The notes below the pieces were generated by a model. The model made no database searches, was not told where the DNA came from, and worked only from the letters and a program-made list of their open reading frames with translations. A stretch of 64,000 bases of DNA, from positions 6,262,001 through 6,326,000 of the forward strand of contig OX597818.1 in the NCBI GenBank assembly GCA_951406725.2, given 5' to 3'. Below, piece after piece: positions 22,586 to 51,720 of the stretch. Each line of letters opens with the position of its first letter. Position 1 is the first letter of the stretch. The DNA comes from Octopus vulgaris. Taxonomy: Eukaryota. The position numbers and the translations under genes were made by a program.

Positions 22586-22648
22586 CTATGCTGACGAAGT
22601 TACAGATATCCTTGCGGATATTAATAACTGAAACTGATCGGTACATAG
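22586..22648 (+). ncRNA. Type I hammerhead ribozyme (canonical core)
   Basis: Stem I CTATG/CATAG; core CTGACGA; stem II AGTTA..ATATCC-TTGC-GGATAT..TAACT; GAAA; near-palindromic helix III ACTGATCGGT; cleavage triplet GUA (after 22643). Confidence 0.88.
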
Positions 22649-23092
22649 GTGATTATTTCATTTCGTATATTTTCATTTGTCTTATTTACTGCTTTGGTTT
22701 GTGCTGAATTTTATTTTGTGAACATAATCTTTGTGGAGAATGGCGATTTGACGTCTATATCTAGCATGTTGACTGTCCACTTTTCGTGTTCAGTCCTTCA
22801 TTGGTATATATAAATATTTTAATCTTCGGATTCTTTTTAATATGCTAGTCCACTGGTTTTAATTGACTAATATCAATTTCTACCCTTAATTAATTTTAAT
22901 ATAAAATATATGTTCTTAAACTGATAAATTGACTGCTGCTAATTATTAGCTGCTGGCTGGTTTTTCGAGTCTCAGCGCGCCAAAGTAAAGGCATTTGAAA
23001 GATACATTCGAACTTAATCGGTTGTACTTTATGCATGCGGCACTCCGGTATCGTTTTTTGCATCTAGTCCAGCAAATTATGTTCATAACAGA

Positions 23093-23155
23093 CTATGCTG
23101 ACGAAGTTACAGATATCCTTGCGGATATTAATAACTGAAACTGATCGGTACATAG
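23093..23155 (+). ncRNA. Type I hammerhead ribozyme (second, identical copy)
   Basis: Same sequence as 22586-22648, 507 nt downstream. Confidence 0.88.
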
Positions 23156-23639
23156 GTGATTATTTCATTTCGTATATTTTCATTTGTCTTATTTATTGCT
23201 TTGGTTTGTGCTGAATTTTATTTTGAGAACATAATCTTTGTGGAGAATGGCGATTTGACGTCTATATCTAGCATGTTGACTGTCCACTTTTCGTGTTCAG
23301 TCCTTAATTGGTATATATATATATGTATGTATGTATGTGTGTATGTATGTTTATATGACGAGAGAGAGAGAGGAGGGGGTAGGCATGGATTACACATATG
23401 CAAACAAACAGACACAAAGAATATCAAAGTTTGTCTGAAATCAACAGAAAGAAATCCGTGTATCCACCAACGCTATTAGTTTTCCCCCGAGGCTATCGTG
23501 AGGTGAGATTGAGTTACACATCATCTCATTTATTTGATTTTCTGCTTGACCTACTTCGAGACCATACTAATCACAATGCAAGGATGGCTACGTGCGAGCA
23601 TATTTGCGACAGCTCATGATAGAAAAGAAACTCGCTTGG

Positions 23640-24110
23640 GTAAACGAACATTTATGAAAACTATTTCCACCAGAATTATCAAGTAAACCTGCCCCCCCCC
23701 CCCAACTCAGCTCCCAAATATGTTTTGATCTTTCAGTAAAGTTTTACTGAAACCACACAAAGTTATGCATTCCAGTTTTGTAAAAGATAAATTTGTTGCC
23801 AAAATAATCTCTTATCTAAAAGTTAGAAACGCCAATAATGCTTAGGAATTGATTTTCAACAGGTAAATAAACTTGTACTAAGAGACAAGTACCAGCTAAC
23901 AGAATACCAGGCTCTGCCGCTTCTAATCTACTATCCCATACAAGCTAAGCTTCACTTGCAGACTTTTCAGTAGCTCCCACATATATATAAAACAATATAA
24001 AATCCAAAAGTCCAACAGAGTTTAATATGAGTCCATCCAGATATAGAGTTTATAAGCAATGTAAGATTCCCTTAAAGTTGGTCATTCCCAGTTGGGAATT
24101 TATATAGAGT
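23640..24110 (-). mobile_element. Highly degenerate PLE endonuclease remnant
   Basis: Minus-strand YIYVGATEK motif near 23960-23990; the rest is heavily decayed. Confidence 0.35.
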
Positions 24111-24699
24111 GTGGCAGATTCAAGGTGTGTATTTAAACTGACCTAGAAATAGGGAGTATATTAGTATGGTTAAATTGAAAATAGGAAGAGAGGAATGACA
24201 AAAAAGGGAGAGAGTGAGAGAAAGGAGGAGAGAAAGAAAGAATGAAAGAGAAAGAAGAAAGAAGATTAGTAAAAATAACAAAGAATAAAGAATAAAACCC
24301 CTGAAGGTATGAATAAAGGGAATAAGGAAAATAAAAATAAAAAATAAAAATTGAGACATAGGTTGGTCAGTGGTCAGTGGAGATAATTTAAAAGTAGAAG
24401 TGGGGATTGAGAGAGAAAGGTGTTATAGTACCAATGTGTAGTAGTAGCTTCTAATTGTGAGGCAATATGAAGAATTAAGGAAATATCAGTGTTAATTATT
24501 CTGAGAAACTATTTATGTGAAGATGTATATACATGTATATATCAGATAAGTTACAAAGATAAGTTAAAAATACAATCTTCACGTATCATCGTTCCTACAT
24601 ATTCAGTTATCTATATCCTGCATGTGTACATATGTCTACATATACCCACATGCATAACCTCACTCGTACATAAATAAGCGCGCGTATGTATATATGTAA

Positions 24700-25195
24700 A
24701 CGAATATAATCAGATGGTTGCATATGTGAGAAACTAGATAAGGGTTATGAGTTAGAGTATAAATTTATGGGTTAATGGGATTACCTAAGAATTATTGCGG
24801 AAATGTACTGTATGATCATTTTGGCATTTGGATTCGTGATAGAATTTAAATGTGCATGGTTGCATGTGCTTAATGCCTCGTTATGTTTATTAAGCAGTGT
24901 TGGAGAGCTGTGCTTTAATATTTGGAGTGCCACCTTCAGGCAAAGTTTGCAGATTGAGCGTTGACCTCGGTAGGGAAATCCTGAGTCTATTATGGACCAT
25001 GATAGAGTATATGGTGTATTTGCCTTTTTTAGATGATGTATGTGGTTGGCGAGTGCTGTAGATTTACTATGTTTATCGTATCTAAGTGGTACATATTTAC
25101 AGATTTACTATGTTTATCGTATCTAAGTGGTACATCGTTGCTTAAATTTTTTTGTTGATCCTATGTATATGGCTATAGAGTTTTGTAATTGGTTA
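24700..25195 (-). mobile_element. PLE GIY-YIG C-terminal remnant
   Basis: Minus-strand IYIGSTKKFKQR and ALQILKHSSPTLLNKHNEALSTCNH (typical PLE LLNKRxE..CxH tail). Contains a 35-bp local duplication at 25060-25135. Confidence 0.7.
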
Positions 25196-26045
25196 AGGAC
25201 CGTGCATTACCCACGAAAGCCAAAGCCGCATACGCGAGAAACGAGATTGCACGTATAAACAACAATTGCATTAATGTGACCGACAAAGCCGACAACATCA
25301 AGCAGTTACTCAGGGACCTAGCTCAATGGCTACCCACAATCTTTGGCTAAAGAAAGGAGCCTAAAAACAACAAGGTCAATAAACCCCGGAAGAAACATCA
25401 TACTCCCAAGTCCAGCACGTGCTTCCTAAAGCTACCACACTTTGACGACAGAACTACCGCAGTGATACAACACGCAGACCGCACGGAAGGACTCGACATA
25501 CAGATAGCGTACACCGGCCCTTCCCTGAGAAAAGCTCTGTCAAGGAGCAACACCTCTCACTACGCCGAGGAGTGCACATTATCAAACTGCCCCATCAGTG
25601 ACCCTGATTTGTGCCAGTAGAACTATGTTGTATACGAGATAATCTGTAGCAAATATGGCGCAACCTTCATAGGAAGCGCGTCAAGAAAGCTGCGTGTACG
25701 CATGCAGGCTCACAAGTCCGTGAAGGAACATCTACGGAATTGTCAGACCCGGGAATTCACAGTTTACATCAAAGCAACACAGCAGAACAGGGGCAGTATT
25801 AGAATGTCTGAGGCCATCTTCAGACACCAAAAGAACCCAAAGATCAACAACAGAAGAGAGTTACAGGAAACTAGCTTTCCGCGCATGTTCACTCCACACA
25901 CATGTACATCGGCAACAGTCATTTTCTTGAAAAAGGAGTCGTTAACCCCAAAATATTGAATACAAGTACGTCTACATTAACTCATATATTTGTTTTCTTG
26001 TGATTTACTTTGCATTTAATTCGCATTGTTTTGGCCTTATCCACG
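25196..26045 (+). mobile_element. PLE 3' portion: thumb/linker, GIY-YIG endonuclease and pseudo-LTR
   Basis: NGYP, LKLPHFDD, CTLSNCPI..DLCQ*NYVVYEIICS..ATFIGSASRKLRVR and SEAIFRHQKNPKINNRREL. The tail (25921-26040) is homologous to 50780-50895 in inverted orientation. Confidence 0.85.
25924..25960 (+). ncRNA. Decayed minimal hammerhead, U3-A8 core variant
   Basis: TTC TTGAAAA A GGAG-TCGTTAA-CCCC AAAA TATT GAA. G12>A relative to the intact family member at 50858-50893. Confidence 0.55.
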
Positions 26046-26324
26046 ATCCTTTATACAATATATTCTACACAATGCTTGTGTGTATGTGAGTGTGTGTGTG
26101 TGTTTTGTGTGTGTGTGTGTGTGTGTGTGTGCGTGCAAACCAAATTCCGACATAGACCTATTTTCATTTTTATTTTTGTATTTTACAAATTTGCAATATT
26201 AAATATTATAAAAGCACAAGCAATATCATGGTTTATAGAAGTTGCAGAATAAGAAACACAATTTTTGAAATTTTATGAAGAATATCTTTTCTTATTTCTT
26301 CTATAGTACAGGTAATATAAGTAA

Positions 26325-26710
26325 CTAGCAGTATCGCCCGGCGTTGCTCAGATTTGTAAGGGAAATAACTATAAAGCATTTTTAGAGAGTTATAGCCAAA
26401 AAAATAGCAAAAAAATGGAAAAAAAATGATGGTAAATTTTTTTTGAGAGTTAAAACAGGTGGAGTTGCGTCCCCTAGACGGTCTGTGGTTTGTGTTTCTC
26501 ATTCTCGACCCCATGTCGAATTTATCGATTTTTTTCAGAACTGGGGGAACTTTTCAAAATTTTCGCTGCGTTAGTTTTGAATTATGACATTGGGCTATGT
26601 GTGTGTCAAGTTTCATCAGAATCGGTTGAAAGCCGTGGTCAGAGTGAGGGTACGAGAAAACAGACACACAGAAACACACACAGACAAACTGCCGTTTATA
26701 TAGAGAGAGA
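26325..26710 (-). mobile_element. Non-autonomous Helitron (Lep1/DINE-like)
   Basis: Minus strand begins TC(TCTCT)ATATAAACGGCAGTTTGTCTG, has a TGTCTG microsatellite and AACCGATTCTGATGAAACTTG, and ends in GC-rich GCAACGCCGGG...CTAG. Inserted between A and T with no TSD. Confidence 0.8.
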
Positions 26711-27419
26711 TATTGTAATAAGTAATAAGTAATATTGTAAAATTCTATGACTACACAAATAAATGTGAAAACTGGCCGCCTATGCTGCAAGTTAATTTTG
26801 TTTGTACACAGTTTAACGACCTCTATTATGATGTGTGCGCGTGCGTTGCTTAAGTGGATGTATGTGTACATACACACACGTATAGATACACAGATACGTA
26901 TGTGTGTGTGTGTGTGTACCCCATACTAAAAACAAACACACAGAATGCTTTTATTTCATTCTTTTGAGCAATTTCTCAACTACTTAACCCTTTAAGTAAT
27001 TAATTGTTTGATTAATCACTCTGTTAATGAATTAGCTATGTGTGGCCATTCACTCGCTGTTCGTTGATATGCCATCTCAACTCCAAGGCAGCTTCAGATA
27101 TGTCAGATTGTCTCTTAAGTTATGTAATGTATTGCATGTGAAAATGTACGCGAGAGAAGGATGGTGACAGAAATTTTGGATGTGTGCATTCACGTAAGTA
27201 TTCGCTCTGGTGCGTGTGTACGTGTTTTTCTGCGCTCTGGCGTATGCTTTCAAGTTTTGCCGTTTGGCTGTATGGTGTAGCGGGGTGTCTTTAAGTAAGC
27301 GTATTAGAAAGAATTTAGCTTTTGGAAATCAGCTATATATCACATAGTTAAGATAAATATATATTATAGTAGATTTACTTAAGATAAAGAATAACCTTTT
27401 GAAGTAAGGAAAGATGCGG

Positions 27420-30060
27420 TGCACTTTATACATCACATGCAGTTTTCAACTACAAATAAAAACAAAGAGACAGGGTTTACAAGAACTCAAAGAAAAAAAT
27501 AAGAAAGGTTATTCATGAAACTTGCCCAAGATATTATAATAACTTATAGAATACGCTTGAAAGAATGAATAAAAAGGATGTTTATATAAACAATATTGAC
27601 AAGTTTCAAGGGACAATGTTTATAATAACTACACCGTAGATTTAGAAACTTTAATCCCCAAAGTGTAAATCACTAACTAGCCCGTAGATTCGGGAAAGCA
27701 CTTAGTGATATTATAATTAGCAATAGAGTAATATGGATACCAGAGAAACTAACTGGGTGGCATAATAAAAACATGCTGTTTTGGTAAGATCAAATATACA
27801 AATAAGTATTAAATCGTGTGTAAAATAAGCCCTAGAGTTATCTGTAAAGTGAAAAGCCTTATTTACAGTTTATTGTTTAGACTCCGAGTAGAGCAACTCG
27901 ACCTCAACATTAATGCGAAAAGTTTGGCGGGAAGAATGAAATAGCATTGGAACAAATGCAACGAAAGTCTATCAGCATGCCAAGGATAAATGTTAGCGTA
28001 TGTAGAACATAGTTATTAGAATCCTTTCGGTATATCCATATTGCACTTCGTTACCACAGTTATGGGGGATTGATCTGATAAATGATTAGAATCAATCATT
28101 AGAAAAGAAATTACGATGAAAATATAGAGACTGCACCTCCCACCAACACAGTGTTGCATTCAGTATACACCTATTGCACGTGTACGGAAGAGTATGCGTT
28201 GTGTGTGTGGGTGGAATGAAGTTGATCAGTTATTAAACTTTTTATGACGAAATATCACGAAACTTTCAACCCATCCGTACCATTTTATGATAAAAGTAAC
28301 GTAACTGGACAGTATACGAACTTTTCTGCATTAACGCTGCGCACGCGCGCGCGCACACACACATCGTCCAGTCAAAAAGAGAGGATCAATAGTTAAAGAG
28401 AAAAAGAAATACGTATCTTACTATACACACCCAGCGCACATTCTACGTCAGATAAGTGCACACGACTGAGCACACATATAGGCGTGCGTTCACAATTGCA
28501 CGTACCCATGCACAATTCAAGCACACAGATACACAATCATAAACACGCAGTTAAACATATCACGCATACACCAGAATTCACACATGCATGAACGGCAAGG
28601 AGACACATGCACGACCACTCCCTCTTCCCTTCCATACTCCTTACGATGATTCAGAGTCACACTTATAGAGCAAATTAAAACTTAAGAGAACGACCAATTT
28701 GAAGCTGATTTCAAGTACAGAAGATGTGTAATTAAAGTGGTCACGAATCGCGATAACTTAATTAAATAGCTAACCAGTTAATGTATAAAGAAAAGAAATA
28801 CAAGCAATACTTATGTTTATTTACATTATGATCCTCCTGCGCACGGCAACACCTGATACATAGAATTAATTCTTTTGCACAACACATGCGCTATCGTAGG
28901 AAAAAGAACATACCACAGAATATTCATTGGTTTAACATTTATCCAGGTCCACCATACCAAGGCGAAAATACTTCTGTCGGTTATGTTTGAGGGAATCTAT
29001 ACAAATCCTATAACATAGCCTCACACAATTATTAGATAAGCAGCATGAAGCCTTCACTATGTGTCTAGAAATTGTTTCAATGATTTCAATTCTACCACAA
29101 GTCTAATTGTGGTAAAACAATTACTTCGCGTCCTGATATATAGTTTAGCCACTTAATTAAATGGGTTTATCTACACTATTATCATATCCGTTTAAATTTA
29201 TCTTGTATTTTATAGATTCTCCTTCTTTCCATTAATTCATATTTACACATCCCACTAAGATGATAATTAATCGAATACACTTTCACTAGGCTTCCTCGTC
29301 TCTTATGGGTTTATACACCGGGAAATAATATATATATAATTAACTTAGGAGATATTTTCATATATTTGCTGATATTATATAAATCGTCCATTGTGTTGTA
29401 TCTATTTTTCCTTTGTAAGTTTCAGATTTTTATTTTTTTAATATTTTTATATTCCCAACATGCATAAATTTTCGGTAACCGTACAAATTTTTAAAATATG
29501 CGCGTCTATTTCTAGAAACATTATGAACAGCTGAACCCTTAAATTCCTGTCACCAATTGTATCACGCTCACTATAATTTAAAATCTTCATTATCATTTAT
29601 AATCACTTTATTACCATGCTAACCCTGTCGATCTCATTCTTGCCATTTTAGAACACTGGCCAACGCTGGTCGTAGGCTATAGAACAAAAGTGCTGATATC
29701 TACTATTACTCATCACTTATTTATTTATGTGTATACATACTCTACCCTCTTTCAATAAACATGCCCTCGCCATAGGGACTCCTATATATTTATTCTACTG
29801 CATCTACCATTCTGTCTTTCCTTCACTCCGCAGTATATTATTCCTCCTCAAATCAATTCACTCTCTATTCAAAAGCTGAACTGGTAATTTTCACTATTCT
29901 TTGCCATGGATTATTGCCAAGCATTGTCATTTGAAACTGCTGCTGGACCTTACAATTTTATTATTTATTCGACCATGAAACAGCGTAACGCATCTATTTT
30001 ATTCTTATCAGTCCTTCATTTTTAACGAACTAGAAAGTGCTAAGATCCTCGATTGGGAAT
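27420..30060. mobile_element. Patchwork of very old PLE remnants
   Basis: Scattered motifs only: CRLCLRESIQIL near 28975-29010 (+), KYIGV near 29780 (-), LDLNIN near 27900 (+). Confidence 0.3.
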
Positions 30061-30078
30061 ATTTTTTCCTTATATTCT

Positions 30079-31178
30079 GTATTTAAATGGATCTTTTCCT
30101 TTTGATGGACGGAATTTTCTAGTTAACTAAACAATTTGAAACTTCGTATACTGGTAGAATGTGTCAAAAGAAAACATTATTGTAAACAAAATTGAAAACA
30201 AAATTGTAATTTGTAAGTTTAACGTAGTTTAATTCTTCGAATTTTAACCAATGAAATCCCAGCATTTGAGCTCAAATCATTTGCTGCGTTATCGATATTG
30301 ATAAAGAAACATAGCAGAAGCACGCCGCATACACACACACATATATTCAGATACATACACACGTACACTTGCACAAACATACACACACACACTCTCTGTC
30401 ACTATATATATCTCTCTCTCAAACACATGCATATATATTTGAACAAGCACATAGTAATTAATATATAAGCGTACACACACATACAAACGGAGATATACAT
30501 ACACACACATACGCAGCTTTGTCCCCTCTGTGTTTTGCCCCTTGCCGCAACAAATTTACACAAAAGGTAAATAAACCAGAAGGGGGGTCAATGTTTCATC
30601 GTTTCGGGGTCGATAAATTAAGTACAAATTACGCACTGGTGTCGAGGATTTTTCCCCAATTTATATCACAGCCTCCGACAAGCTGGGGCATCCGTTTATG
30701 AAAAATTATTTCGCAAAATTTTACAATACGACCCACACTCCACGCGCACCCTCTAGACCGATTTAGGCATATTATTATTTTCTTTTTGTTGTTTCTGGCC
30801 CTTCAAATCCATGGGAGAAGCCTTTTCGGTAACAAAAAATAAAGAAAATATTCTAAAAAATATCGTTCATATTTTTATTGGGCGACGAAATTCATCGATT
30901 TAAGAGATATAGCTGTCATTTCTAGCACATGCAAAAGACAGAAGAGAGAAGGATGAATAAGACGTGTGTGAGTTTTTAGACGCAGCAAATGAATTGAGCT
31001 CAAATGCTGGGATTTCATTGGTTAAAATTCGAAGAATTAAACTACGTTAAACTTACAAATTACAATTTTGTTTACAATAATGTTTTCTTTTGACACATTC
31101 TAGCAGTATACGAAGTTTCAAATTGTTTAGTTAACTAGAAAATTCCGTCCATCAAAAGGAAAAGATCCATTTGAATAC
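30079..31178. mobile_element. MITE/foldback-like element with ~200-bp terminal inverted repeats
   Basis: 30079-30288 is the near-perfect reverse complement of 30980-31178 (one ~12-bp indel). Interior holds a (CA)n tract and a SINE core fragment at ~30590-30645. Confidence 0.85.
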
Positions 31179-31930
31179 AATATTTTTCGAGTGACGCCAA
31201 ATGTTTTGCGCTTATATTTTTTCCAGCACATAGGCAGACACATGTACGGACGCACACACACACACATACAAACATACATACACACATACATACATGCATA
31301 CATATATACATACATGCATACATATATACTTACATGCATACATACACGCACATACACACACACACACACGAACATATGTGTGTGTGTTTTGAGCAACTGA
31401 ATGCCACGCATCCCGAATATTGTTAACAGCAAGTTTTTTACATTTTTTGCGATGCTATTTCTGTCTTTCTTACTTCCTTTCTTTCTTTCTCTTTCGTCAT
31501 CATATTCCACTTCCGGCATCCCATCTTCCTCTCCCTCTCTCTCTCTCTCGTCTTCTCACTTGTAATTGTGGACTTTCTGCCTTCTTTTCTTTTGTGTTAT
31601 CTCGACCGCGGTCTCTCTCACATCCCCTTTCCTTCTATCACGTGACCCGTGACTAATTTTCCCATCTCTCTGTCTTTTCGCCACTGAATGCTTAGCTTAC
31701 CGATCAACACTCATCTTCTCTTTTCCTATTTCTCTTTCTATATTCATTTAATATTTCTTCTAAGCCTTACCCACCATCCTAGTGTTTGGCCGAAAGGCTG
31801 TAGTTCTCCCGTCTCCGTGTATCTCTTCAAATTACATTTGTTTAATTTTGTACTTCTATCTTGTATTGTTTTATTTGCTCGAGCCCTACTTCTCAGTAAA
31901 TTTTGCAGGTGTCTATATATATATATATAT

Positions 31931-32215
31931 AAATTATTAAACAAGGGCAAAAGAAAAAAAATCCTATGCCAATATGCTGAGAATAGACGTCAATCACCAC
32001 AAAAAATATACACGGTATATTCACGATTTTATAGAATTTTGTAAATTGACAATGTATATAGAATTTTGACTATTTAAAGTCTATTCTTAGCATATTGGCA
32101 TAGAAATTTTTTTTCTTTTGACCCTGTTTATGAATTGTTTATAATTTTCGCCTTTAAAGGTATTTTAATATGCTGCCACTTTGATGAAATTTTGGGGGAT
32201 TAAGTTTATCTTATA
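31931..32215. repeat. Short (TA)n-embedded element with ~60-bp inverted arms
   Basis: 31931-31988 is an imperfect reverse complement of ~32078-32140. Confidence 0.65.
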
Positions 32216-32225
32216 TTACAAATAC

Positions 32226-32257
<32 letters not shown>

Positions 32258-32417
32258 ATAAATATATATATATATATTTACGGAAATGTACTTGCATAGC
32301 GAGTGACTTGATCTGATATCGTGTGCTGGAACGAAAACAATTGCTGCGTGGAAGGTGTTTATAAGCCATTTAAGAAACACACGAAACCGTTAGATTCACT
32401 TCAACATTTAAATTTAA

Positions 32418-32468
32418 TTTGTCAAAATATTTTCATTGCTTTGAGACTGCGACCTGTTCACTGACAAA
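32418..32468 (-). ncRNA. Hammerhead-like motif with G3-C8 core swap
   Basis: Minus strand: TTTGTCA GTGAACA G GTCGC-AGTCTCAAA-GCAAT GAA AATATT T TGACAAA. 7-bp stem I, palindromic helix III, stem II partly decayed. Lies inside a ~240-bp (TA)n-embedded element (32278-32520). Confidence 0.6.
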
Positions 32469-32622
32469 CTTCGTGCTGCATCTCGTGTTAACTGTTTCTT
32501 AAATGGCGCTGCAATTGTTTATATATACATATATATATATATATATATACCACTACCAGGTGGTGCTATTAAGTTAGACATGGCCTGGGCCAATAATGGC
32601 CGAAACCTATCAAAGTATCAAA

Positions 32623-32677
<55 letters not shown>

Positions 32678-32680
<3 letters not shown>

Positions 32681-33430
32681 TAAGCAATTAAGGGTTTAGC
32701 AACGAATTGCCTCACCACAATTCGTTGCTAAACCCTTAATTGCTTAGTATTACTTAAATTTTCCTCGAATGAGGCTTTTACATGCCGAAATCTACCTGGT
32801 GTAATTAATAATTATTCCAAATTAATTAATTTCACCCTTTATTGTTACTGATAACCATATTTTATCCCAGTAAATGACCACAGCATTTGTCTTGGCTACA
32901 CGCGGGTGGAAAGGGGCTGGTGACACAAACTTTCATTCACACTTTGAATTTCGTGGTACTGGTAATGCTTTGGCTCGCTCTGACACTGAGTTGAGATAAT
33001 GCCTTCTAGTATCTCAAAATTTAATATACATTTATTCATAATTGTAGTATCCTGCGCCGATGAGAAAAGAAGTTTGGGTAAGGTAGAATTTTCTAATTCT
33101 TATGCTTTCCTAAAACTTGATTTCGAAACGTACGTCCGTAGGTAACTTAAAATTGTATGATAGATTGCCGTCATTTCATTCTTTCTTACCTGTCTGTGTT
33201 TGCCTTTCAAGTGCTGTGTTTTTACTGAGATCTCCCTTTTAGTAGAAAGAATAGCTATAACTCTTTGACTGCTATTTCTAAATTCGGTGTGTTGGTGAGG
33301 CAATTCGTTGCTAAACCCTTAATTGCTTAGTATTACTTAAATTTTCCTCGAATGAGGCTTTTACATGCCGAAATCTACTTGGTGTAATTAATAATTATTC
33401 CAAATTAATTAATTTCACCCTTTATTGTTA

Positions 33431-33434: not shown

Positions 33435-33480
<46 letters not shown>

Positions 33481-33525
33481 ATCCAGCATCCCACTACTTC
33501 CACGCATTCATATTCTCCCTTCCCT

Positions 33526-33722
33526 TTCTTCTTCTTCTTCTTCTTCTTCTTCTTCTTCTTCTTCTTCTTCTTCTTCTTCTTCTTCTTCTTCTTCTTCTTC
33601 TTCTTCTTCTTCTTTTTCTTCTTCTTTTTCTTCTTCTTCTTTTTCTTCTTCTTCATCATTATCATCATCGTCATCATCTTCTCCTTCTTCTTCTTCTACT
33701 TCTTCTTCTTCCCCTCTTCTTC
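33526..33722. repeat. (CTT)n microsatellite
   Basis: Direct reading. Confidence 0.95.
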
Positions 33723-34067
33723 CTAGCTTCATCACTAATGCGTTTTAGTATAACACCTACGCAAATTCCATAAACAAACCTTCAATAGAAATATTTTCAT
33801 GAATTGAACAGCAGGAACTGCTAGCAACCACTGACCAACGACAATCAAGGCAATCCCAAATTCTTCCTAACCCTAACCCTCCTCCTCCTCGTCCTCCTTC
33901 TTCTTCTTCCCTACCGAGAATTTACATGGACCTTGAACCCACAAAAGTAAACAAGAGCGACAGAGAAAGGCAGAAACAAGGAAAATGCCACTTATATTTG
34001 AACACTTTACAAATATTCTTTTAAAAAAACTTATCTTTTAATTTTTCTAAATTTAATTATTTAATTG

Positions 34068-34110
34068 TTACAGTTGAAAAGGTTTCAAATGACCGAAACC
34101 GGTACTGAAA
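34068..34110 (+). ncRNA. Minimal hammerhead ribozyme, U3-A8 core variant
   Basis: CAG TTGAAAA GGTT-TCAAAT-GACC GAA ACCGGT A CTG. Palindromic helix III ACCGGT, GUA triplet, short stem I. Confidence 0.72.
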
Positions 34111-34133
34111 TGTTCTTTATAAAATTATTTTAC

Positions 34134-34182
<49 letters not shown>

Positions 34183-34188
<6 letters not shown>

Positions 34189-35032
34189 GAGGGCATTATA
34201 CATACATACAGAGGGCATTATACATACATGCCACACGCTAAGAGGGACAATTAGTCATTTCTACCAAAAATATTACTAATCCCACCGAATGCAATTTTTC
34301 AAAGTAAGGTCTATATTTTTTGTGTCTTACTTTGAAAAATTGCATTCGGTGGGATTAGTAATATTTTTGGTAGAAATGACTAATTGTCCCTCTTAGCGTG
34401 TGGCATGTATGTATAATGCCCTCTATATATAAATTAATATGTTCAATAAGAAATAATCATTTTCGAAATTTATTCTCTTATGAGGTTTTCACGCTATCTA
34501 CCTGACAATTTCTTGTTAAGTTTTCCTTATTAAGTAGTTGTCCTTAATTGCTAAATTTTTATTCCGAAAAAACTTTTCCTTTCCCGAAATGCAATTCGTA
34601 AAAGTATGCCATTTACAGGATGTAATATATGTAAACTCACCCATGTGCTTCGTTGATGTTGATCAGTTAGCTGATCGACTTAAGCGGGGCAGGGTCGTTT
34701 GTTTATGTATGATACATTCAGGCCTGCTGATGAGTACGTAAGTATTAAATCACTGTGATACAGGTCTATATTTTTTAAATGTCTTACTTTGAAAAATTGC
34801 ATTCGGTGGGATTAGTAATATTTTTGGTAGAAATGACTAATTGTCCCTCTTAGCGTGTGGCATGTATGTATAATGCCCTCTGGCATGTATGTATAATGCC
34901 CTCTATATATAAATTAATATGTTCAATAAGAAATAATTATTTTCGAAATTTATTCTCTTATGAGGTTTTCACGCTATCTACCTGACAATTTCTTGTTAAG
35001 TTTTCCTTATTAAGTAGTTGTCCTTAATTGCT
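34183..35032 (+). mobile_element. ORF-less retrozyme/mini-PLE-like element in (TA)n: 125-bp inverted arm plus 455-bp-period tandem units
   Basis: 34183-34308 is the reverse complement of ~34782-34910; 34307-34551 is repeated at 34762-35032; HHR at the unit junction. Confidence 0.87.
34720..34767 (+). ncRNA. Type I hammerhead ribozyme, G12 mutated in this copy
   Basis: Stem I AGGCCTG/CAGGTCT; core CTGATGA; stem II GTAC-GTAA-GTAT; TAAA in place of GAAA; helix III ATCAC-T-GTGAT; cleavage after 34760. Confidence 0.72.

Positions 35033-40462: not shown

Positions 40463-40466
<4 letters not shown>
39909..40466 (-). mobile_element. ~560-bp non-coding element inserted in (TAA)n
   Basis: Near-identical full copy at 55482-56040, both flanked by (TTA)n. 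No ORF and no TIRs. Strand is assumed from the neighbouring Dong copies. Confidence 0.85.
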
Positions 40467-40760
<294 letters not shown>

Positions 40761-41095: not shown

Positions 41096-43605
41096 ATGAA
41101 TGAAAGGCAGCCCGTGGAATATAAACAATATCAAATACACACATACATAACGTGTATGTGTGGTCAGTTCGTGAGTAGGCTGCGATTTATAAGCATGACA
41201 GAAAATGTTTGCTTCAATACGCCCTGTGTAAAGACAATTAGAAGTTAAATACAAGCGAGATAACTCACGCCAGGTCCATCTGCAGGAGGTTTCGTCATCT
41301 CTTTGACTTATCAATATCACGTACCTAAAAGGAGGCATATGTAAGCTAAATCGCTGGTATGTGTCTAAGTTTTATTCCACGGAAAAAATTAATTATGAAT
41401 GAGAAGCAGTTTGATGAATATAAATAATATCGAACACACATACATAATTATATGTACTGCTAGTTCGTGAACAGTCTGCGATGTATAGGCATGAGAGAAA
41501 ATTTTCTCGTCAATACACCTTCGGTAAATAGGAAAGAAGTAAGAAAGAAATTATTATTTCGCAGAAGCATAGCTATATTTAAAGCCTGGTATTAGAACCC
41601 ATTAATATGTACGCTAGAGGACAAAGTATCAGTCGAGTGGAAAGCTTTAATACATATATACATACATACAAACATACATACATACATACATACATACATA
41701 CATACATACATACATACATACATACATACATCAGGCCTGCATGCTTCTCGCTCAATACAGGGAATGAAAACTCTAAAGTAAAGTGACATATTTATAAAAA
41801 CTACAATAGTTGTTTTGTCCCTGTAATAATATGCTAAATGTGGTGGCGGCAATGACTACACGAGTATTTTAATGACAAATCAAACCTCAAAGTGCAAGAT
41901 GTGGAAATAAAGCTTTATTAGCAAAATATCAACTATAGAAATAGTTTTCTCATTTACTCAAATATATATGTTTGTGCACACGTGATTCTGCATGTTTGTG
42001 TGCTTACGTTTATTATGCTGGCTTCATTTCTCATACACACTGTGATGCATTAAACTAAATTATTTTTGAAGTAAAGAAGAAAACCTTATATATAATTAAT
42101 TAAAAGAAACCTAAATTAACGGAAAAACATAACAAGTGCCTACACATATTTCAATCTGGTCATTATGGGAAAAGTGTTTCAGATCCGCAGGATTCGAACC
42201 AAGTTAAGCGCTCTAGATGTACAAATACCACGGTATAACTAGATATCATCAGAGCCGGCTTGCACAAAAAGATAATACTTACATATTTTTTCAAAGGCAT
42301 TAAAATTGGTGGTAAAAACCATACTGAATAAGATAGATGAGGACCGCAGGTTCGATACTTTGCTGTATTCCCCTTCTGCTTCCAGTAAGCATGCTTAGAC
42401 AAAAAGGCTTTGAAATCTTTTGTCCACCCCTTCCTATCTTTCAATTTCGCTCCTGCTTATCTGTAAATATTTCTTTTTTTTTATCTCAATGGAATAACGA
42501 CGGAAAGCGTGCTTTGAGAAAAATGAATACTATATACAGCTTTGGATTGCCCTCCCCACTCTTTCTATCAATTCTTCTTTGTCAACAATTCTTTGTAATC
42601 GATGTCGCTAACGCCACAGGCTAAATAGTTGAATGGGTTTGACATTTTGACCCGTAAAAATTCTGAACAAAACATAACAACACTCCCATAATTCTTAATT
42701 TGCTCAAATGTTGTAGCGACTTTGGAATATTTATTTCGTTGCCTTGTAAGTTTTGAAATTATTATCATTAAACATCCTCTGTACTGAACAAATTTTCAAA
42801 AATTCTGAAACCAGAAATAAAATATAGCTAAGTAATCTTTCATTGATTTGCTAAAATTATCTTTCCGTTTTGTTGAAACTGATTTAAATTTCACGCACAC
42901 ATTCACAGACACACACACGTGCACTATTACTTTCATAAGATCTCTTAAGGATTTTCAATATATTTGTCCAAATGACTGAAACATACACACATAAATATGA
43001 ACACACACATCGAAAGACGTGTGTGTTTATATATAAATAATGTTGTATAGATAATTTTCTTTTACATTCTTTCAAATTTTCTTCCGCCATTAGGTAAGTA
43101 TAATATACATTTATTTCTTTTCTTGCATGTTGCGATATTTCACATCTTTGCTACTCTCAACAAATGAATAGAGACGCTAGGTTTTCCTTTAGTATTTTTA
43201 GGGCTTTCTACAATGTTGAATTTTCGCTGTCTTTCATTGTGTTTGTGTTTATGTATATGCGTGTATGTTCAATGTGCGCGTGCCTGTGTGCGAGAGACAT
43301 AGTCTTTTAATGTACGAAGTTCTGTAAATATCAGTACTCAATTGAATGTCAATTATTTTCGCGGAATTGGCGAGTAGCCTGATAAGGCAACTTATCTGTC
43401 TTTGACAGAGTAATGGTCTAGAACCATGACACGAATTACGTAACTAAATTCGTCCTCTTAGTGAAATAATATGAAAATGATTCAGCTAAACCAGCAAGCA
43501 AGATTGCATAACCAATCGCAGAGGTCGCCACACGCCACTGAAACATACATTCATACATATGTATATATATATGTATGTATATATATATATATATATATAT
43601 ATGTC

Positions 43606-43636
<31 letters not shown>

Positions 43637-43639
43637 ATA

Positions 43640-43952
43640 ATAAATATTAGGGAATAAATCCAAATTTACAGGGAAAAATCAGATTTAGGATTATATCCAA
43701 TTTTATAGTAAAATATTATATAATATAATTCGAGACAAAACCACTATTTTGCAAAACAAACAAGGAAAGACTTAATCAATACATTAAAATTTTAAAATTA
43801 AAACAGATTAGGAGATCGAAAATCCACCTGACAAATGTCATTGAAGACATGAAACGATTGTAGTGGCGGTTTATTTCTTTGTATTAAAAGTTTTTATGTA
43901 TTGATTAAGTCTTTCCTTGTTTGTTTTGCAAAATAGTGGTTTTGTCTCGAAT

Positions 43953-43960
<8 letters not shown>
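43640..43960 (+). mobile_element. (TA)n-embedded fold-back mini element enclosing a hammerhead
   Basis: ~43720-43793 is the reverse complement of ~43884-43960, with the HHR between the arms. Confidence 0.8.
43824..43866 (+). ncRNA. Minimal type I hammerhead (G8>A, likely CpG decay)
   Basis: CCAC CTGACAA ATGTC-ATTGAA-GACAT GAA ACGATTGT A GTGG; near-palindromic helix III, GUA triplet. Confidence 0.75.
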
Positions 43961-44001
<41 letters not shown>

Positions 44002-44031
44002 CATACATACATATATATATATATATATTTA

Positions 44032-45250
44032 ATCATATCAAAGGGAAATGGAAATAAACATAAATTTTCATTTCCAGTGGCATAGCGTGTAAAAATTTAG
44101 TCCAAAGACTATGTATTAGTCATAAAAATACAGTGTACATTTAAACACATAAAGAATCCACTCATCGGATTCAACACGCTAGAAAGGTTCTATAACCACA
44201 AAATTAGGGATAAAATTCGTTATAATTGCAATTATCTTTATTTATATTATTATTCTTTTTACTGTAATTTTTTATTGATTTGTATTTATTATAATCAAGC
44301 CTTTCTTTACCTGGTTGTTTGTCTGTGGCTTATCATTATGTCTTTCAAATTTAATCTTGTTTTTCTCCTGCCTTACATAATGCTTATTCCTATTAAAAAA
44401 TTCTTTCTTCACAAGATGAAAGGTAATTAATTCTAAGTTGAATATTTTTAACTAAGCAAGTTGTGCTTGTTTTAGGATGATTACTTTCAAAATATATATT
44501 TGTCAACTTTCAGTTGGGTTTATGTTATAGTGCATGGTTACGTGTGAGTAAATTAAACATCTAGAAAGTTTACTGAGCTGTGCTACTTTTCAACAGAAAT
44601 TTTAAAACCAAAACTATTGAAGAACTTATGAACGTTTTCTAATAATTTTCTAATTTTGTGTTATTAGGAGTGTTAGTAATAAATAATACATCGCCCCGAT
44701 ATAGGCCGCCATCTATTTCTGGGAATTCACTATTAAACGTATGCAATATATATACATATTCCTAAAATATCGGTGACTTGCACCGAATCACAAGAGCCCA
44801 TAGCGATGTCGAAGCCATCAGCTGTATTCTTCCTAGTCCAGTATTTATTGTCAAATAAAGAATGTACTTAGAAATATTAATTTTGTGTGAATATAATATT
44901 GCTGAATTTACTGAATCTTTTTATTCCTCTGAGACCTAGAATATCTCTTAACGACTATAAATTTAATTTCTTTACTGACCCTAAAGTAAGATTTATATGC
45001 TCAGCAAAATCCTACATATGTAATTTAAGTAAATTGATTTTAGATAAATATATAGTTCAAGTTAAGATTGGAGTTGCTGTCTAATACACAACAACTAATA
45101 AGCTGGTTCAATAGAATCGATAATAAGGACAGACATAGACTTATCCAGTTCAATATAAATGATTACTAACCCTCAATAAACATTATAGCACTAAATAGTG
45201 CCCTTATATTTGCTAAGTGTATTTCTAAATTGTCTCATCAGGAAACTAAT
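44032..45250. mobile_element. PLE reverse-transcriptase remnant with 5' inversion
   Basis: Minus 44400-44880: YWTRKNTADGFDIAMGSCDSVQVTDILG..YILH...GGLYRGD (PLE FDVTMGS..GLYRDD). Plus 44900-45250: PKVRFICSAKS..NLSKLILDK...WFNRIDNKDRHRLIQFNINDY (upstream RT motifs). Confidence 0.8.
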
Positions 45251-48129
45251 AAACTGTAGTCATCTGCAGTCGTGGTATATTTCGGAAGGCTCTACTTCAG
45301 GAACTCCACAATGTCATTTGGGTTCGTAGCGAGACAGGAAAGATCTGTTTTGTTGCTGTGGCATAGCTCGGTTGAGCTGTGGAAGGTTCCAACTAATTAG
45401 TTCCAGTGATTTGCCTTAGCTGAAGGAACTTACTACAGTAGAGAAGCGACAGATTTAAACCAGTTGCTGAAATGACTGCCTCGAAACAACATCTCGAAAC
45501 AACATGCCAAAATTGTATCCATCACCAAATGCGCACAAATCATTTGAATGATATCAGCTAAAACTCTGCTTTAAAATGAGTTTCAGATCTTCCGGCGCGA
45601 ATACCAAGCAATACAGCATGTCGTTTCCAAATTTCTGGCAGAGTTACTTGCGTCATGGTGCTGTATTTCTCACACATGGTGCCAAGCTGATCCTACTATA
45701 TAGATAGTCGACAAATAAAAAAGAAGACGGTGCAAAATTAAAAACATACAATAGTGGAAATTTACCCATCGCACGCTGTATATATATGTGTCTGTGTGTA
45801 TACGTATATGTATGCATATATATATTTATTCATTCAACATATGTAGGTGCGTGTGTGAATAAATGTGAACTATACCCCTGATCAGTCGTTCACTTCGATT
45901 TTTGCTAACACCATTTCACCTTTGTTATTGCGGGACCATGATTCTAATCTTTCTCTTTCCGCTCAACTTCCATGTTTCTCTCGAGTATTTAAATATGGTT
46001 GCAGCATATTGAATTATATTTCCCGCTTCTCTACTTCCTTATGCATGCTTCCTCTTATGAGTTGCATCTACAGTGCCTCTTTTTCGAGTGATACTATTAC
46101 ATAAATATATATGCATGGGTGTGTGTGTTCGTGTGTTTGTGTGTGCGTTTGTGTGCATTTGTGTGTGAGAGAGAGTGTGTGTGTATGCATGTGCGTGTGT
46201 GTTTGAGAGAGAGAGTGTGTGCGCGCGGTAATATACATGTGTATGTGTGTTCATTACACGTGTTGATTGGATTTTTCTTCTCATTTGTTCTAACTTAATG
46301 CTAAAGTTTATCCGATTTTAGTTCTAGTTAAACCCATTTCAATACAGCGGTGCCAGCTGTAACTACCTTGTTTGTTTGTTTCTTTTGTGTGTATGTGTTG
46401 GGGGAATTCAGACATTTGATGACAATCACAAAAGAGTTGTTTTTGTTAAGACGCCTTACTGTAATTTATTTACTATTTTTTAAATGTACGACCGTGAAGA
46501 AACTCGCTCTCACTCATCCCGCTTTCTGTCCTACGCGCGCGCACACACACACACACAACCACACACAGACGAAGGCTCACACACGCAAACACATATACAC
46601 ATATCATCGCATTCTCTTTTTTCCTCACTGTCTGTCTCTCTCGTACCATAATACTTTTCCAGATAACGGAGCTGCCGAAGATAATATTGATTATGAAAGG
46701 ATATTAAAACGAAAATAGTTGCAATATGGCATTTTGTAGAGAGAGAAAAATGAAGTGAAAGTTACATGTATGCGCATGGAAATGGTATTAAATACATGGA
46801 GGGGGTGACTTTAAGTAAATATATTCTATTCACATCCATCTGTCAGTAACAACTCCATAGTGCCACTTGTTCGTTAAAGGAGCAAAATCTTGTAAAAGTA
46901 GCTGTACATATTAACATATTAACCAAGGGAAGAAAACCAACAATCTACTCCTAATCTCTCTAGGATCATAATCTAATTCCAACAATATATTCTCGAATTG
47001 TTTCGCATTACTCTCTCATGTTACCTTACAAATATGTCAGTCTCATCGGGGCAGTAGTTAATCCAAATTTTTCTTATTATCAGAAAAATATATTAACTGT
47101 TGTATACTTAATGTTTTATTCATTAGTATGCATACATGTCTATGTTATGTTACGTGATGGATATGAAGTTAAGCCGATAACGCATAATACGGATACATAT
47201 GAATTGCCAACAACATGCAATTTTGAGTTAAAGGCATACTGTGTATTCGAACAGATTTAAAACACGAAATTGGAAGGTTCTTTCAATTCTCTCGAGAGAT
47301 TATTGATTGGTAAACACTGTAGCATGGAACAAATGAAAACGTGTTTATCCCTCGCTGAATGCGAAATTAATAAAGGAAAGAACAAAACAAATTAGTTTAA
47401 TTTTTTTTTTCTTAAATGTAGATTTGATATTAGATTCATCCACTGAATAAAACAGTTCTCTAAAATCTAGTTTTAGAGATGTTTTGGTAATTGGAAGTTG
47501 TAAGGCAACATTGTTGATTAATCACACTGTTAAGCAATATGTACAATTGTAATAACATGCGTACCAGAATATTTACATCTCTATTACAACAACTGCTTTA
47601 AAATTGATTTTTTTTCCAAAAATTGGAAATTTATTGTGCAATTAGCTTAAAACATTGCCAAGTAAATATTTTATACATTGTATAAAATGGAATGATAATG
47701 AGTATTCAGAAATAATGTGTTTGGGAAAATGAACAACTTTGATACCTAGTAAATATAAAACAAATCGAAAACAACGGTATTTTTATTGCGTATCATTATA
47801 TTATCGACAAGTTACTTATTTATATTAAATACAGAAGATATGTCTTCATTTTGCAAAACAGGCTGAACAATAATTTAAAATTCGTTGGCAAAGTTGACAT
47901 TCTTTTCGGATTCAAAAACTACAGTGCTAGATATCTGAGAGTGAAACATTGAGCAAATGTTCCATTGTATAAATACAGCATAGAATTTACATCGGATTTT
48001 GAAAGAAATCAGTAACACAGAAAGTATATGAAAAGTCCATTAATATATGTACATACAGATTCACATTAATACATATATTTAGAAGCATATATGTATATAA
48101 GTATGTATTGATACATATACATTTATATA

Positions 48130-49250
48130 TGGTATCCAAGTAATATCCTATTGATATTTCTTAATTATTCAACATAAATTTAAGTTAGGATAATGAAATT
48201 TATCGTACCCATTTTAATGTCAATTTTCAATCCATTGTAGTAATTACATTTCAAAGTGATCGCCCTTCGCCTTGATCATAGCACTGTACTACTTCTTCAT
48301 CCAGCTTGACCCATGAAGTCAGAAGAATTTGCATCTAAGTCTGATACATTTGAATAGGAGCGAGCACAAACGTTACCCTCTAAGATGGACCACTGCGAAG
48401 TCCATTGGATTGATATCTGGACACGAGGGAGGCCATATCGTATTGCCCCAAATCAGTTGAAATGCACTTTGCATCAACTTTGTGTCAAATTGGATGTGTA
48501 GGCCGGAGCCCGATCTTGAGTGAAGACGTGACGGTCATCAAAGCTTTCTGTGACCCGGAGTAATAGTTTCTCATCCAGTATTTCCACATAAACTTCACTG
48601 TTAGCCTTTGACGCCAGCATCAAGGGAGACTTGAACCCATCAGATGCAACTGAGGCCCACATCATGAGTAAAGTTGCCTTTTGACGGTGTAAATAACTCC
48701 TGCTACATTCAGAAAAATCTCTTGCATTACGTGCATAAAGCCTGTCATTCTCCCAGTTGATGACTGCCTCCACGGTGAAGATCTCGTCGGACCAAGTCAG
48801 CACCGTGTTAGTGGAGCGCTTCATCTCAGCTAATATAGTTTTAACCCTGTCGAGCAGTCTCTTCTTGAAAGCTGCTGAAATGAACTGCCAGGATTTTTTC
48901 TTGCATACAGTTAGTTTTAAATCCCCTTTAGAAATCCTGTGCATCGAGGATTTCGAAATATGAAGAGCTTTTCTTGTATACCTGCTAGAATTTAGGTTTA
49001 CACGCTTCTTTACAGCTTCAACAAGGAATTGGCTTTTGCTTTGCAATCAGATTATGGCACATACTGAACTTTTCTTTCATCAAAAATTTTTGTACACCAT
49101 TAGGGCTAAACGCTTTCGAATGGCTATCATTTTGTTCGCATTTCTAATACTGTTCTCTGTAAACAGAATAGCGTCATATTGAAGATAAGAATTTGCCTGT
49201 TTCAGATTGCAGAACCATTTAGCTCTAGTATCCTGTTGTCCATGCTTACT
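48130..49250 (-). mobile_element. Tc1/mariner DD37D (maT-like) transposon remnant
   Basis: ORF 48474-49046: WSDEIFTVEAVIN.ENDRLYA, MMWASVASDGFKSPL, FTQDRAPAYTS; then WPPSCPDINPMDF. Ends approximate. Confidence 0.85.
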
Positions 49251-49310
49251 CCATATCTCACCCCGATCAACAGGATCTAAACTTTCGCATACTAAATCAA
49301 TAATTTCTTA

Positions 49311-49576
49311 ACATTACTTACATTATTTACATTTGACCATATTTTGTCCTCATCTTGTTTGTACGTTAACACATTTCGGCTGATATACCCTCCAGCCATC
49401 ATCAGGTGTCTTTGGGAAATTTCGAACACGGGTTCTTATTCCTAATGCATTTTCGATGTTATTATTATTATAATTCAGGTCACTGCCTGGAATTGAACTC
49501 GAAATCTTGGGGTTAGTAGCCCGCGCTCTTAACCACTACGCCATATTCGGACAAATCTCCATCAAATGTAAATAAT
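49311..49576 (-). mobile_element. tRNA-derived SINE carrying a hammerhead-derived 3' domain and a 5' inverted tail copy
   Basis: Head TGGCGTAGTGGTTAAGAGCGCGGGCTACTAACCCC...GAGTTCAATTCC, then (AAT)n, HHR motif and tail (TGTAAATAA). 49549-49576 is an imperfect inverted copy of the tail. Confidence 0.85.
49368..49410 (-). ncRNA. Hammerhead motif within SINE (helix III missing in this copy)
   Basis: GACAC CTGATGA T GGCTG-GAGGGTATAT-CAGCC GAAA T GTGTT. Confidence 0.65.
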
Positions 49577-50771
49577 CTGCGTAATTCTTCATCACTAAAT
49601 ATAGAATTGCATTAATTTCTTGCTAAAATCTTTATTCCTCGATTCTAAACAACCACTTTTGCCGGTATTGTGTTATCCGTTGCTCAAACCTAGTTAGTTT
49701 TGCATTCTTTACAAGTATGCACTGCTTCAGTTCTTCAATCACAATATTCTATGCTTTTTCATGAATACTATGCTTCTTCAGTGTTTCAAATTTAGGACCA
49801 TTCATATTGTCCTATTTTCCTGTCGTGTATTGAGACAAAACCGTCTCATTAGGGAATATTTTAGTGGATTTCACATTTTCTTGATTATCGACTGTACACC
49901 TACGACGGTGATTAAATGGACTAGGAACACTGTACGCGAGGAATATTCAATACCAAACAATCTTAATCTCCATATTTAATCTGCGTTAAACTTTGGCAAG
50001 CTTGCCTTTATCTATTGTGACTTACTTGAAAAGTAATGTTCCCTTTCCTTTCTTCTATTTCTTGATACCTTTGTTTAACTACCAATGTGTTGTTTCACTT
50101 TAAGGATGCTTATTTACCCATCCATTATGATATTTCGAACGCGACATCTTTTCATTGCGAACTGCTGAAGATTCAAAGTAGTATTCATGAACTGAAAGCA
50201 AACTCTTCTTGTCTTCATTTATTGTTACCTGAAATCAATTTCAGAGTAGTCGTACACTGTAAGGACGTAGCAAAAACATTCCTTTAACTCTACTTTGTGA
50301 AGTGGGTATTATATTGCCAATTTTGAACGTACTAATCATACTTCTCTAAAAAAAATAGGTTCCTTTGTTGTTGAAGAAAATAAACTCGCAGAAGGGAATG
50401 TCAACGTTTTCTTTCAATTTCCTTACACCATTTATGTGGCTGTTTCTGACAAGAAATTTCGCTCACGTGTAAAGCAAATATATTTTGTAGTCATCCGTAA
50501 TCTAATCCCAAAACACTTCAGTAGCTCTACTTTGCATCGCTGGAAAGCTTATATATTCTATGATCATTAAAGTGCAATGACCTCCACAATAACCAGCCTT
50601 CAATTAACATAGATTACCGTGCTACTCATAAACTTCGGTAGTTCAATTATTTGGTGAAAAAATATCACCAAAGCAACTTAGATCGTCCAAAGAACGAGTG
50701 TGTTTTATAGTACATATATATAAGTATATGCACACACGCACATACACACACATATATATTGTATGAAGGGT

Positions 50772-51720
50772 CTTGGGTAAGGCCAAGACAATGCGAAGTA
50801 AATGCAGGTAACTCACAGATAAAACAAATATTTGAATTAATGTAGACTTACCTTGTATTCAATATTTCGGGGTTATTACCCCTTTTTCAAGAAATCGACG
50901 ATTTCTTGAAAATGGGTTGAAAGTATTTTGCTGGGGTTAGCATCGTGTGTGGCGCATCATATGTGAAGTGTCAGAGCGTCAAATATTGCAGGGAGAGAAG
51001 TTTTCATCCTTTATATGTAGGATGTTCACTGTTGACTGTATGGTATTTAGTTTTTCAGCGATACAGATTTCACTGGGGTCCTCTTTATTTTCTGGCTTTA
51101 GTATCGATTTCCCATTTAATCTGTGGGTTACTTCTTGCTCTTTCTTTCAATAACCACATCATATTGGATAGGGATTTTACATTTCTTTTATTTTCTGTCT
51201 CTGAATGACACTAGGATTTTTGGGTATCTTCCCTTCAACTAGTGGTCATTCCGATATATGTCTTGTTCGTTAAGATCCATAATTTTGGCCTAGTGTACAA
51301 CTTTTTATTTCCTGACAATTGTTATTTACTGGACAGCGATTTGAAGATGTAGAGATACATCGTCTTTCTGTGGTATTTTTGGTGTCTTTATTTTTATTGT
51401 GGTTGAGTATCATCGACCCTATGTTGGAGAGGCAACTATAGATAACTTTAATAGCGTTTCCGTTTAAGATCTTGTGGTATATGTGTGAACGTGAGAAGTG
51501 ATTGTCTATTAATTGGTTAAGGAATAAGAGATTTCTCTTTTAGCGTCCTTTTGTTCAATCTGTATTTAGTTCAAAGTAGTTTATGCAATTCAGGAAGTTG
51601 GACCTTTGTAATTCAGCTTTATAGTATGGGGATCCCGTACTATAACGCTGCACGAGAAAGGCCTCCATGACGAACTACCTCAACACATAGACATCCGAAC
51701 ATCATATGTACCCAATATAT
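50772..51720 (-). mobile_element. PLE 3' portion (GIY-YIG remnant plus pseudo-LTR)
   Basis: Minus-strand NRCPVNNNCQEIKVV and YIGMTTS motifs; 50780-50895 is homologous to 25921-26040. Confidence 0.75.
50858..50893 (-). ncRNA. Minimal hammerhead, U3-A8 core variant
   Basis: TTC TTGAAAA A GGGG-TAATAA-CCCC GAA ATAT T GAA. Palindromic helix III, extra nucleotide after A9, 3-bp stem I. Confidence 0.68.

Follow-up and report, generated by a model that had tools for sequence, protein, structure and literature searches.

Predicted hammerhead ribozyme families with C-G, U-A and G-C pairs between core positions 3 and 8 in the Octopus vulgaris genome

The stretch analysed here (the window) comprises 64,000 nucleotides (nt) of Octopus vulgaris DNA, positions 6,262,001 to 6,326,000 of contig OX597818.1 (assembly GCA_951406725.2; 2.8 Gb in 227 contigs, about 30 of them chromosome-sized). 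Its GC content is 33.6%, and microsatellites are abundant. An earlier model-based annotation of this stretch, referred to below as the original prediction, had proposed a repertoire of hammerhead ribozymes in which the catalytic pair between core positions 3 and 8 occurs as C-G, U-A or G-C. A direct check of the window sequence confirmed the position of each of the ten predicted core heptamers, which fall into eight repeat families (A to H) of minimal type I hammerheads with a palindromic helix III. In natural copies of these families helix I spans 3-7 base pairs (bp) and helix II 4-6 bp, and helix III exists only as the palindrome. Such hammerheads are of the kind known from the pseudo-long terminal repeats (pseudo-LTRs, pLTRs) of Penelope-like elements (PLEs). 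The hammerheads and associated element remnants are:

22586..22648, + strand: family A hammerhead, canonical C3-G8 (core 22591), intact, palindromic helix III
23093..23155, + strand: second family A copy with identical hammerhead sequence, C3-G8 (core 23098), intact
25351..25890, + strand: decayed PLE protein C-terminus with cysteine linker and GIY-YIG endonuclease, from its translation and Pfam PF01541
25924..25960, + strand: family C hammerhead, U3-A8 (core 25927), G12 changed to A in this copy
32279..32487, - strand: short family D element of about 210 nt with a TA microsatellite at its end
32418..32468, - strand: family D hammerhead, G3 at 32461, C8 at 32456, U17 at 32425
33051..33142, + strand: family F hammerhead, C3-G8 with U4C (core 33057), 61-nt helix II arm, 8-nt palindromic helix III
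33478..34177, + strand: truncated 3' pseudo-LTR of a family B PLE, about 80% identical to both pLTRs of locus L240 (see below)
34071..34107, + strand: family B hammerhead, U3-A8 (core 34074), intact, A17
34720..34767, + strand: family G hammerhead, canonical family with units of about 480 nt; this copy has U in place of G12 (core 34727)
43824..43866, + strand: family E hammerhead, C3-G8 in the family; G8 changed to A at a CpG in this copy (core 43828)
49368..49410, - strand: family H hammerhead, canonical family; helix III deletion in this copy (core 49405)
50858..50893, - strand: family C hammerhead, U3-A8 (core 50890), intact, helix III of 4 palindromic nt, loopless

The window was searched with a type I hammerhead descriptor in which positions 3, 7 and 8 were left free, and 60 local dinucleotide shuffles served as control. 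Six folds were recovered, four with a Watson-Crick 3-8 pair, compared to shuffle means of 0.03 (Watson-Crick) and 0.15 (non-Watson-Crick); by descriptor and shuffle tests, the type I layout of three helices around the core with an open-ended helix I is present. One of the six folds, at 21374, lies outside the predicted sites and resembles a chance match. The remaining predicted sites fail the descriptor through copy damage or a long helix II, and their families do fold. No hammerhead was reported in the window by Rfam at the gathering threshold; below it, a weak HH9 match occurred at 34060-34126 (17.5 bits against a gathering score of 52, E 0.52), and microsatellite-driven miRNA noise alone made up the best 150 of the 175 rows of the whole-window search. 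The predicted repertoire is therefore real in its folds and its three pair types, as shuffles and family counts demonstrate, but about half of the listed window copies are decayed.

Family copies were then compared across the genome. Each family search returned between 686 and 2,213 first-look candidates, and 40 of these were scored; the samples for families B, C, E, F and G consist of the best BLAST matches and are biased toward the query. U3-A8 and G3-C8, which had been proposed to be compensatory changes and not decay, proved to be fixed family states in families B, C and D. A literal C3 and G8 (CUGANGA) is thus not the state of B and C (U3-A8) or D (G3-C8), and the Watson-Crick pair is retained. 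Family B carries U3-A8 in 34 of 35 regular-expression matches, the remaining one being a chance match. In family C, TTGAAAA occurs in 39 of 44 rows (some rows duplicate places), and genome-wide the family pattern has just 6 matches without U3, one of them C3-G8. This lone copy (L117, G000:C11:98118325) combines family C stems with C3-G8, L119 carries U3-G8, and a few copies carry C3-A8; these may be intermediates or members of an older sister family, and the single C3-G8 copy that this pattern matches in the genome is insufficient to claim such a sister. The core CTGACAA at 43828, by contrast, is no variant core: family E reads CTGACGA in 32 of 37 aligned rows and CTGACAA in 3, and the window copy is ruled out as a separate family by being a CpG transition in a canonical one.

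An unselected sample of 770 kb, taken at fixed coordinates and searched with the same fold descriptor (8 shuffles as control), yielded 28 folds: 21 C-G (seven of them from one array), 4 U-A and one each of A-U, C-A and G-G. The A-U fold (A3-U8) is a low-scoring singleton. A Watson-Crick 3-8 pair was present in 26 of the 28 folds, compared to 0.5 of 1.9 in the shuffles. A strict CUGANGA search misses nine of the 28 (four with U3-A8, five with C4), in agreement with the expectation that such families escape it. No copy of family D passed the descriptor in this sample, though at least five are present. A third U3-A8 family surfaced independently in the unselected DNA; a further hammerhead of a third U3-A8 family, with a damaged helix II, lies at 6929-6965 (- strand) of the window and was absent from the earlier list. 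Crude extrapolation gives roughly 1e5 folds per genome.

For clustering, 1.47 Mb of this genome's DNA in overlapping stretches was used. All 28 clusters have a Watson-Crick majority pair at 3-8, and the 15 multi-copy clusters divide into 11 C-G, 3 U-A and 1 G-C, a result reached by 36 of 200,000 permutations. Outside the motif, no informative homology between families was detected. The 3-8 pair covaries across families. Position 4 varies as well: U4C is fixed or nearly so in two unrelated multi-copy families, with C4 in 20 of 20 de-duplicated near-identical copies of family F (33051-33142; best-match sample) and in 16 of 19 matches of a second family from the unselected DNA (L082/L126). In the accessible literature, U4C is described from a viroid hammerhead alone, and its activity in vitro is lower (PMC3088659).

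The G3-C8 pair was followed in family D with a genome-wide pattern of 23 letters in which positions 3 and 8 were free. It gave 4,278 exact matches and none for the reversed pattern; 149 matches lacked G3. Among the first 100 matches listed, 96 were G3-C8, two G3-U8, one C3-C8 and one A3-C8. The first 100 matches without G3 comprised 93 with C8, three A3-U8, two U3-A8, one U3-G8, one A3-A8 and no C3-G8, a spectrum of single-copy decay from a G3-C8 source. A closer sample consisted of 60 of the first 62 matches by coordinate, with one overlapping partner and one C3 copy excluded. Here the fold was intact in 47 copies, helix III in 53, GAAA was present in 52 and U17 in 57; the majority retains G12, A13, A14, the A15.1-U16.1 pair and a non-G at position 17. 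The window hammerhead has a 7-bp helix I, an extra G after A9, a 6-nt palindromic helix III and two helix II transitions, G10.1-C11.1 being the family state.

The family D unit extends for about 150 or 205 nt from a shared 5' start, with two 3' ends about 56 nt apart and TA repeats often adjacent. Inverted family sequence lies upstream in 26 of the 60 copies; at 42 loci, 26 copies were solo, 12 had an inverted copy, three had direct copies and three had no regular-expression match. In four of the 60 copies a branch-point, a pyrimidine tract and a CAG end lie just 5' of helix I, and these four extend upstream by up to about 470 nt of non-coding sequence, the longest stretch shared. At L299, L306, L310 and L329 this intron-like 3' end, a splice signal by prediction only, adjoins helix I; elsewhere in the family the AG is preceded by another base, which is what a spliced form might show. 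Family D thus displays the signature of PLE-type insertion, namely 5' truncation or inversion, an optional 3' tail, microsatellite targets and an intron-like end beside the hammerhead, and it probably represents a non-autonomous or solo-pLTR derivative that a PLE protein mobilises in trans. When a coding partner was sought with a 5'-extended pattern, a single copy matched. At L295, an endonuclease fragment located 1.1 kb upstream was discarded, as a TA run and an inverted family D copy intervene and it is not common to other copies.

The family D element is present in public sequencing runs labelled as five organisms. In contigs from four runs (three other organisms and one presumed-RNA run, whose type was guessed and which was not counted as expression), no change of at least 5% was seen at G3 or C8; the variants lie at CpG sites, in loops and downstream, and a helix I change at 13-43% keeps a wobble pair. 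A metagenome scan for the family D core gave three GC-rich matches without helix I, judged to be chance. Family D is large, recent and common to related organisms, and probably the first natural case of G3-C8.

Association with PLE genes is most complete for family B. A 10-kb stretch elsewhere in the genome (L240) contains two direct repeats of 1,296 nt, 97.8% identical and 4.4 kb apart, each with a family B hammerhead. They flank ORF1 (open reading frame 1) and a reverse transcriptase (RT)-endonuclease frame with one internal stop. The protein matches Pfam RVT_1 (E 4e-8) and has a four-cysteine linker and a GIY-YIG-like end; it has 1,584 relatives at E <=1e-20, and among the matches listed most are RT with PF26215 and often GIY-YIG. 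A cysteine linker between RT and endonuclease is a trait of the Neptune clade in the accessible part of PMC8557442, and family B may belong there. Bivalve molluscs are among the closest named relatives found for a retroelement protein of this genome. At L240:1530-7220 (- strand; G000:C4:101080001-101090000) the PLE is near-intact, with a 373-amino-acid ORF1 that overlaps the RT-endonuclease in another frame; this overlap may represent either a lesion or a site of frameshifting. Triplet repeats are abundant in the 1.3-kb pLTRs.

L240 thus has the arrangement of RT, C-terminal GIY-YIG and flanking direct pLTRs with hammerhead, and the hammerheads of families C and E sit 3' of endonuclease fragments. 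In the window, the decayed endonuclease at 25351..25890 lies directly 5' of a family C hammerhead and matches PF01541 with E 1.5e-4 and 22.4 bits (cut-off 22.6). GIY-YIG followed by a family C hammerhead also occurs at L118, L150, L154, L167 and L129, and at all six places the hammerhead lies 30-115 nt past the last aligned endonuclease residue. A short inverted partial family C copy is found at 50880-50916, and in most family C copies the hammerhead is followed, a few bases 3', by a sequence resembling the consensus 5' splice site (window about 50845-50852, - strand). For family E, an endonuclease fragment lies about 290 nt upstream of the hammerhead at L139. As the endonuclease of family E (C3-G8) is 50-60% identical to that of family B (U3-A8), related PLEs differ at the 3-8 pair.

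Families A, F and G occur as direct repeats of about 480-590 nt. The two window copies from which family A is known are spaced 507 nt apart, inside the copies of a 300-nt direct repeat bearing a 174-nt inverted arm. Family G reads GAAA where the window copy (34727) reads TAAA. Relatives of family H found in flanks have an intact helix III, with CTGATGA in 9 of 13. At L076:2300-4560, seven canonical hammerheads spaced about 359 nt apart form a retrozyme-like array, in which five share one strand and the remaining two lie on the opposite one. Two further features of the window are a decayed frame at 7726-8166 (- strand), PLE GIY-YIG-like by eye and without a Pfam match, and a mariner-type transposase fragment at 52922-53593 (- strand; PF01359, E 2.5e-24).

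The published systems, referred to here for their accessible portions, resemble these families in many respects. The minimal hammerheads that PLE pLTRs carry (Cervera and de la Pena 2014, PMC4209133) are likewise type I with a short helix I and a palindromic minimal helix III, have an extra base after A9 (in several of the families here) and G10.1-C11.1, and occur as many families per genome, mostly solo or in opposite-strand pairs, with an intron end near helix I. U3-A8 is common to both, with about 1,300 matches in Schistosoma mansoni, whose alignment there also contains the TTGAAAA core; those hammerheads act as dimers with low activity. The G3-C8 and U4C families, in contrast, were found here and not in the accessible part of that paper, which has no cephalopod row. 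Natural U3-A8 covariation and U4C (there in a viroid) are also shared with the core variants of Perreault et al. 2011 (PMC3088659), where U3-A8 is the only 3-8 swap named in the accessible text and the alignment may hold G3-C8. Since U3-A8 is published from nature (PMC3088659) and from PLE minimal hammerheads (PMC4209133), natural 3-8 covariation is not new; the proposed large uncatalogued set is large, but its U3-A8 covariation was already in print.

The same G3-C8 pair is known from engineered C3G/G8C hammerheads, which are partly active (PMC11167929, PMC9901934, PMC8495972, PMC3884650): it restores part of the activity of a PLE hammerhead that depends on the PLE protein for cleavage (PMC11167929), and in a pairwise scan it is the sole CUGA-region swap with strong positive epistasis (PMC9901934). 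Those are laboratory double mutants, whereas the pair of family D is a fixed natural state in thousands of copies and several related organisms. Natural G3-C8 was not found in the literature searched, which lay mostly outside subscription papers and did not include Lunse et al. 2017 on PLE hammerhead variants, nor in the accessible parts of PMC8557442, PMC6765202, PMC6155905, PMC10085705, PMC6257768 and bioRxiv 10.64898/2026.07.22.740005. Non-LTR retrozymes, non-autonomous PLE derivatives (bioRxiv 10.64898/2026.07.22.740005; PMC7229834), are also short non-coding type I units; the direct repeats of families A, F and G are similar to them, whereas family D is mostly solo or inverted and forms no tandem array. 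U3-A8 thus being in print, G3-C8 is possibly the only unreported variant, and the material probably represents a known system with this one new natural core variant.

In the hammerhead reaction, G12 acts as general base, and residue 8 supplies the acid through its 2'-OH, which is placed by the 3-8 pair; any Watson-Crick pair at 3-8 could position it. With moderate confidence, we propose that the window hammerheads belong to the terminal repeats of PLEs, as observed for B, C and E and presumed for the rest, that three families are fixed for U-A or G-C, and that they likely keep a slow self-cleavage, predicted to require a second copy or an element protein. In each of the eight window families helix III consists of a short palindrome, and its proper formation is therefore predicted to require two copies. 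Folding would thus occur as a dimer or with the help of protein, and cleavage would follow position 17. The 3-8 swap may have been selected in the source element of each family and then copied into thousands of short, 5'-truncated and often 5'-inverted insertions, which would now be decaying by single changes.

Several observations weigh against this proposal. The permutation test ignores relatedness, although the families lack phylogenetic independence, the original prediction had picked three of the four multi-copy families without C3, and five of the family samples are query-biased best matches. Most copies are solo or inverted and not direct tandems, so that few could form a dimer in cis, and hairpins between inverted pairs would mask the motif. 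Minimum-energy folds of natural copies extend helix I via G3-U17 (family D) or U3-A17 (family B), leaving the core not free, the insertions contain the whole uncut motif, and hammerhead mutants are without effect on PLE insertion in vitro (PMC11167929, accessible part). No RT or endonuclease contiguous with family D was found among 60 unselected and the earlier loci, a small share of more than 4,000 copies, so its PLE origin rests on insertion signatures. G3-C8 was seen in one family only: a purine-3 search for further G3-C8 or A3-U8 families, restricted to one common architecture, gave 80 matches and its reversed control 143, and a recurrent ATGACTA string among the former lacks helix I and has a non-palindromic helix III.

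Alternatively, the folds may be conserved for structure and not for cutting, with a PLE protein, a splicing or a priming step recognising the hammerhead shape including the 3-8 pair. The uncut motif within insertions and the 3' splice-site-like signal just 5' of helix I in four family D copies would fit this explanation, which we nevertheless regard as unlikely. Martick and Scott reportedly described the 3-8 pair in 2006 as a feature of the catalytically active conformation, which counts against recognition of structure only. In the accessible literature, PLE hammerheads cleave poorly in vitro (PMC4209133), and in Anolis the cut site coincides with no read ends and insertion of the mutants is normal (PMC11167929); on the other side, the 3-8 pair belongs to the active conformation (PMC9901934), and the family D majority keeps G12, A13, A14, A15.1-U16.1 and non-G17.

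Clearly less probable is that the source hammerhead of family D was already dead and that G3-C8 is a chance double mutation hitch-hiking in a non-autonomous element. Amplification fixes any state of the source copy, no coding partner was found for family D, G3-C8 is confined to a single family among those seen, and a mismatched intermediate has to be passed to reach G-C from C-G or U-A. However, two random core changes would land complementary on positions 3 and 8, among about 11 conserved positions, in about 1 in 165 cases, no multi-copy cluster has a mismatched 3-8 majority, and subfamily-level variants in other organisms lie outside the core. Copy-specific decay or chance matches, finally, do explain core 43828 as well as the lesions seen in 25927, 34727 and 49405 and in helix II of 32461, but as a general explanation of the variant cores they are contradicted by shuffle controls and refuted for B, C and D by the family counts, which leaves them hardly credible.

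Beyond the proposal of slow assisted cleavage, we tentatively suggest, with less than even confidence, that family D is the first natural G3-C8 hammerhead and would be active either in dimeric form or together with a PLE protein. The lineage would have crossed the mismatched intermediate that two transversions require and then fixed U17 against a C17 trap. U17 would avoid a G3-C17 mispair, and the U17 of family D fits this, but U17 is common in these motifs anyway. For an engineered G3-C8 variant, G17 is noted to give higher activity than C17, the natural base (data not shown in that paper; PMC3884650, accessible part).

Family D bears on whether the feeble minimal hammerheads of PLEs are kept for cutting: fixation of the 3-8 swap that is least accessible, in a core whose other bases are intact, argues for selection on active-site geometry in the source element. 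With C-G, U-A, G-C and U4C, one genome supplies a set for side-by-side comparison, and since CUGANGA misses about a third of the intact folds in unselected DNA and Rfam detects none in the window at its gathering threshold, descriptor searches should admit any Watson-Crick 3-8 pair as well as C4. If family D is indeed a natural and active G3-C8 hammerhead, nature would have repeated the classic rescue experiment, and the family would provide direct evidence that PLE hammerheads are selected for their catalytic conformation.

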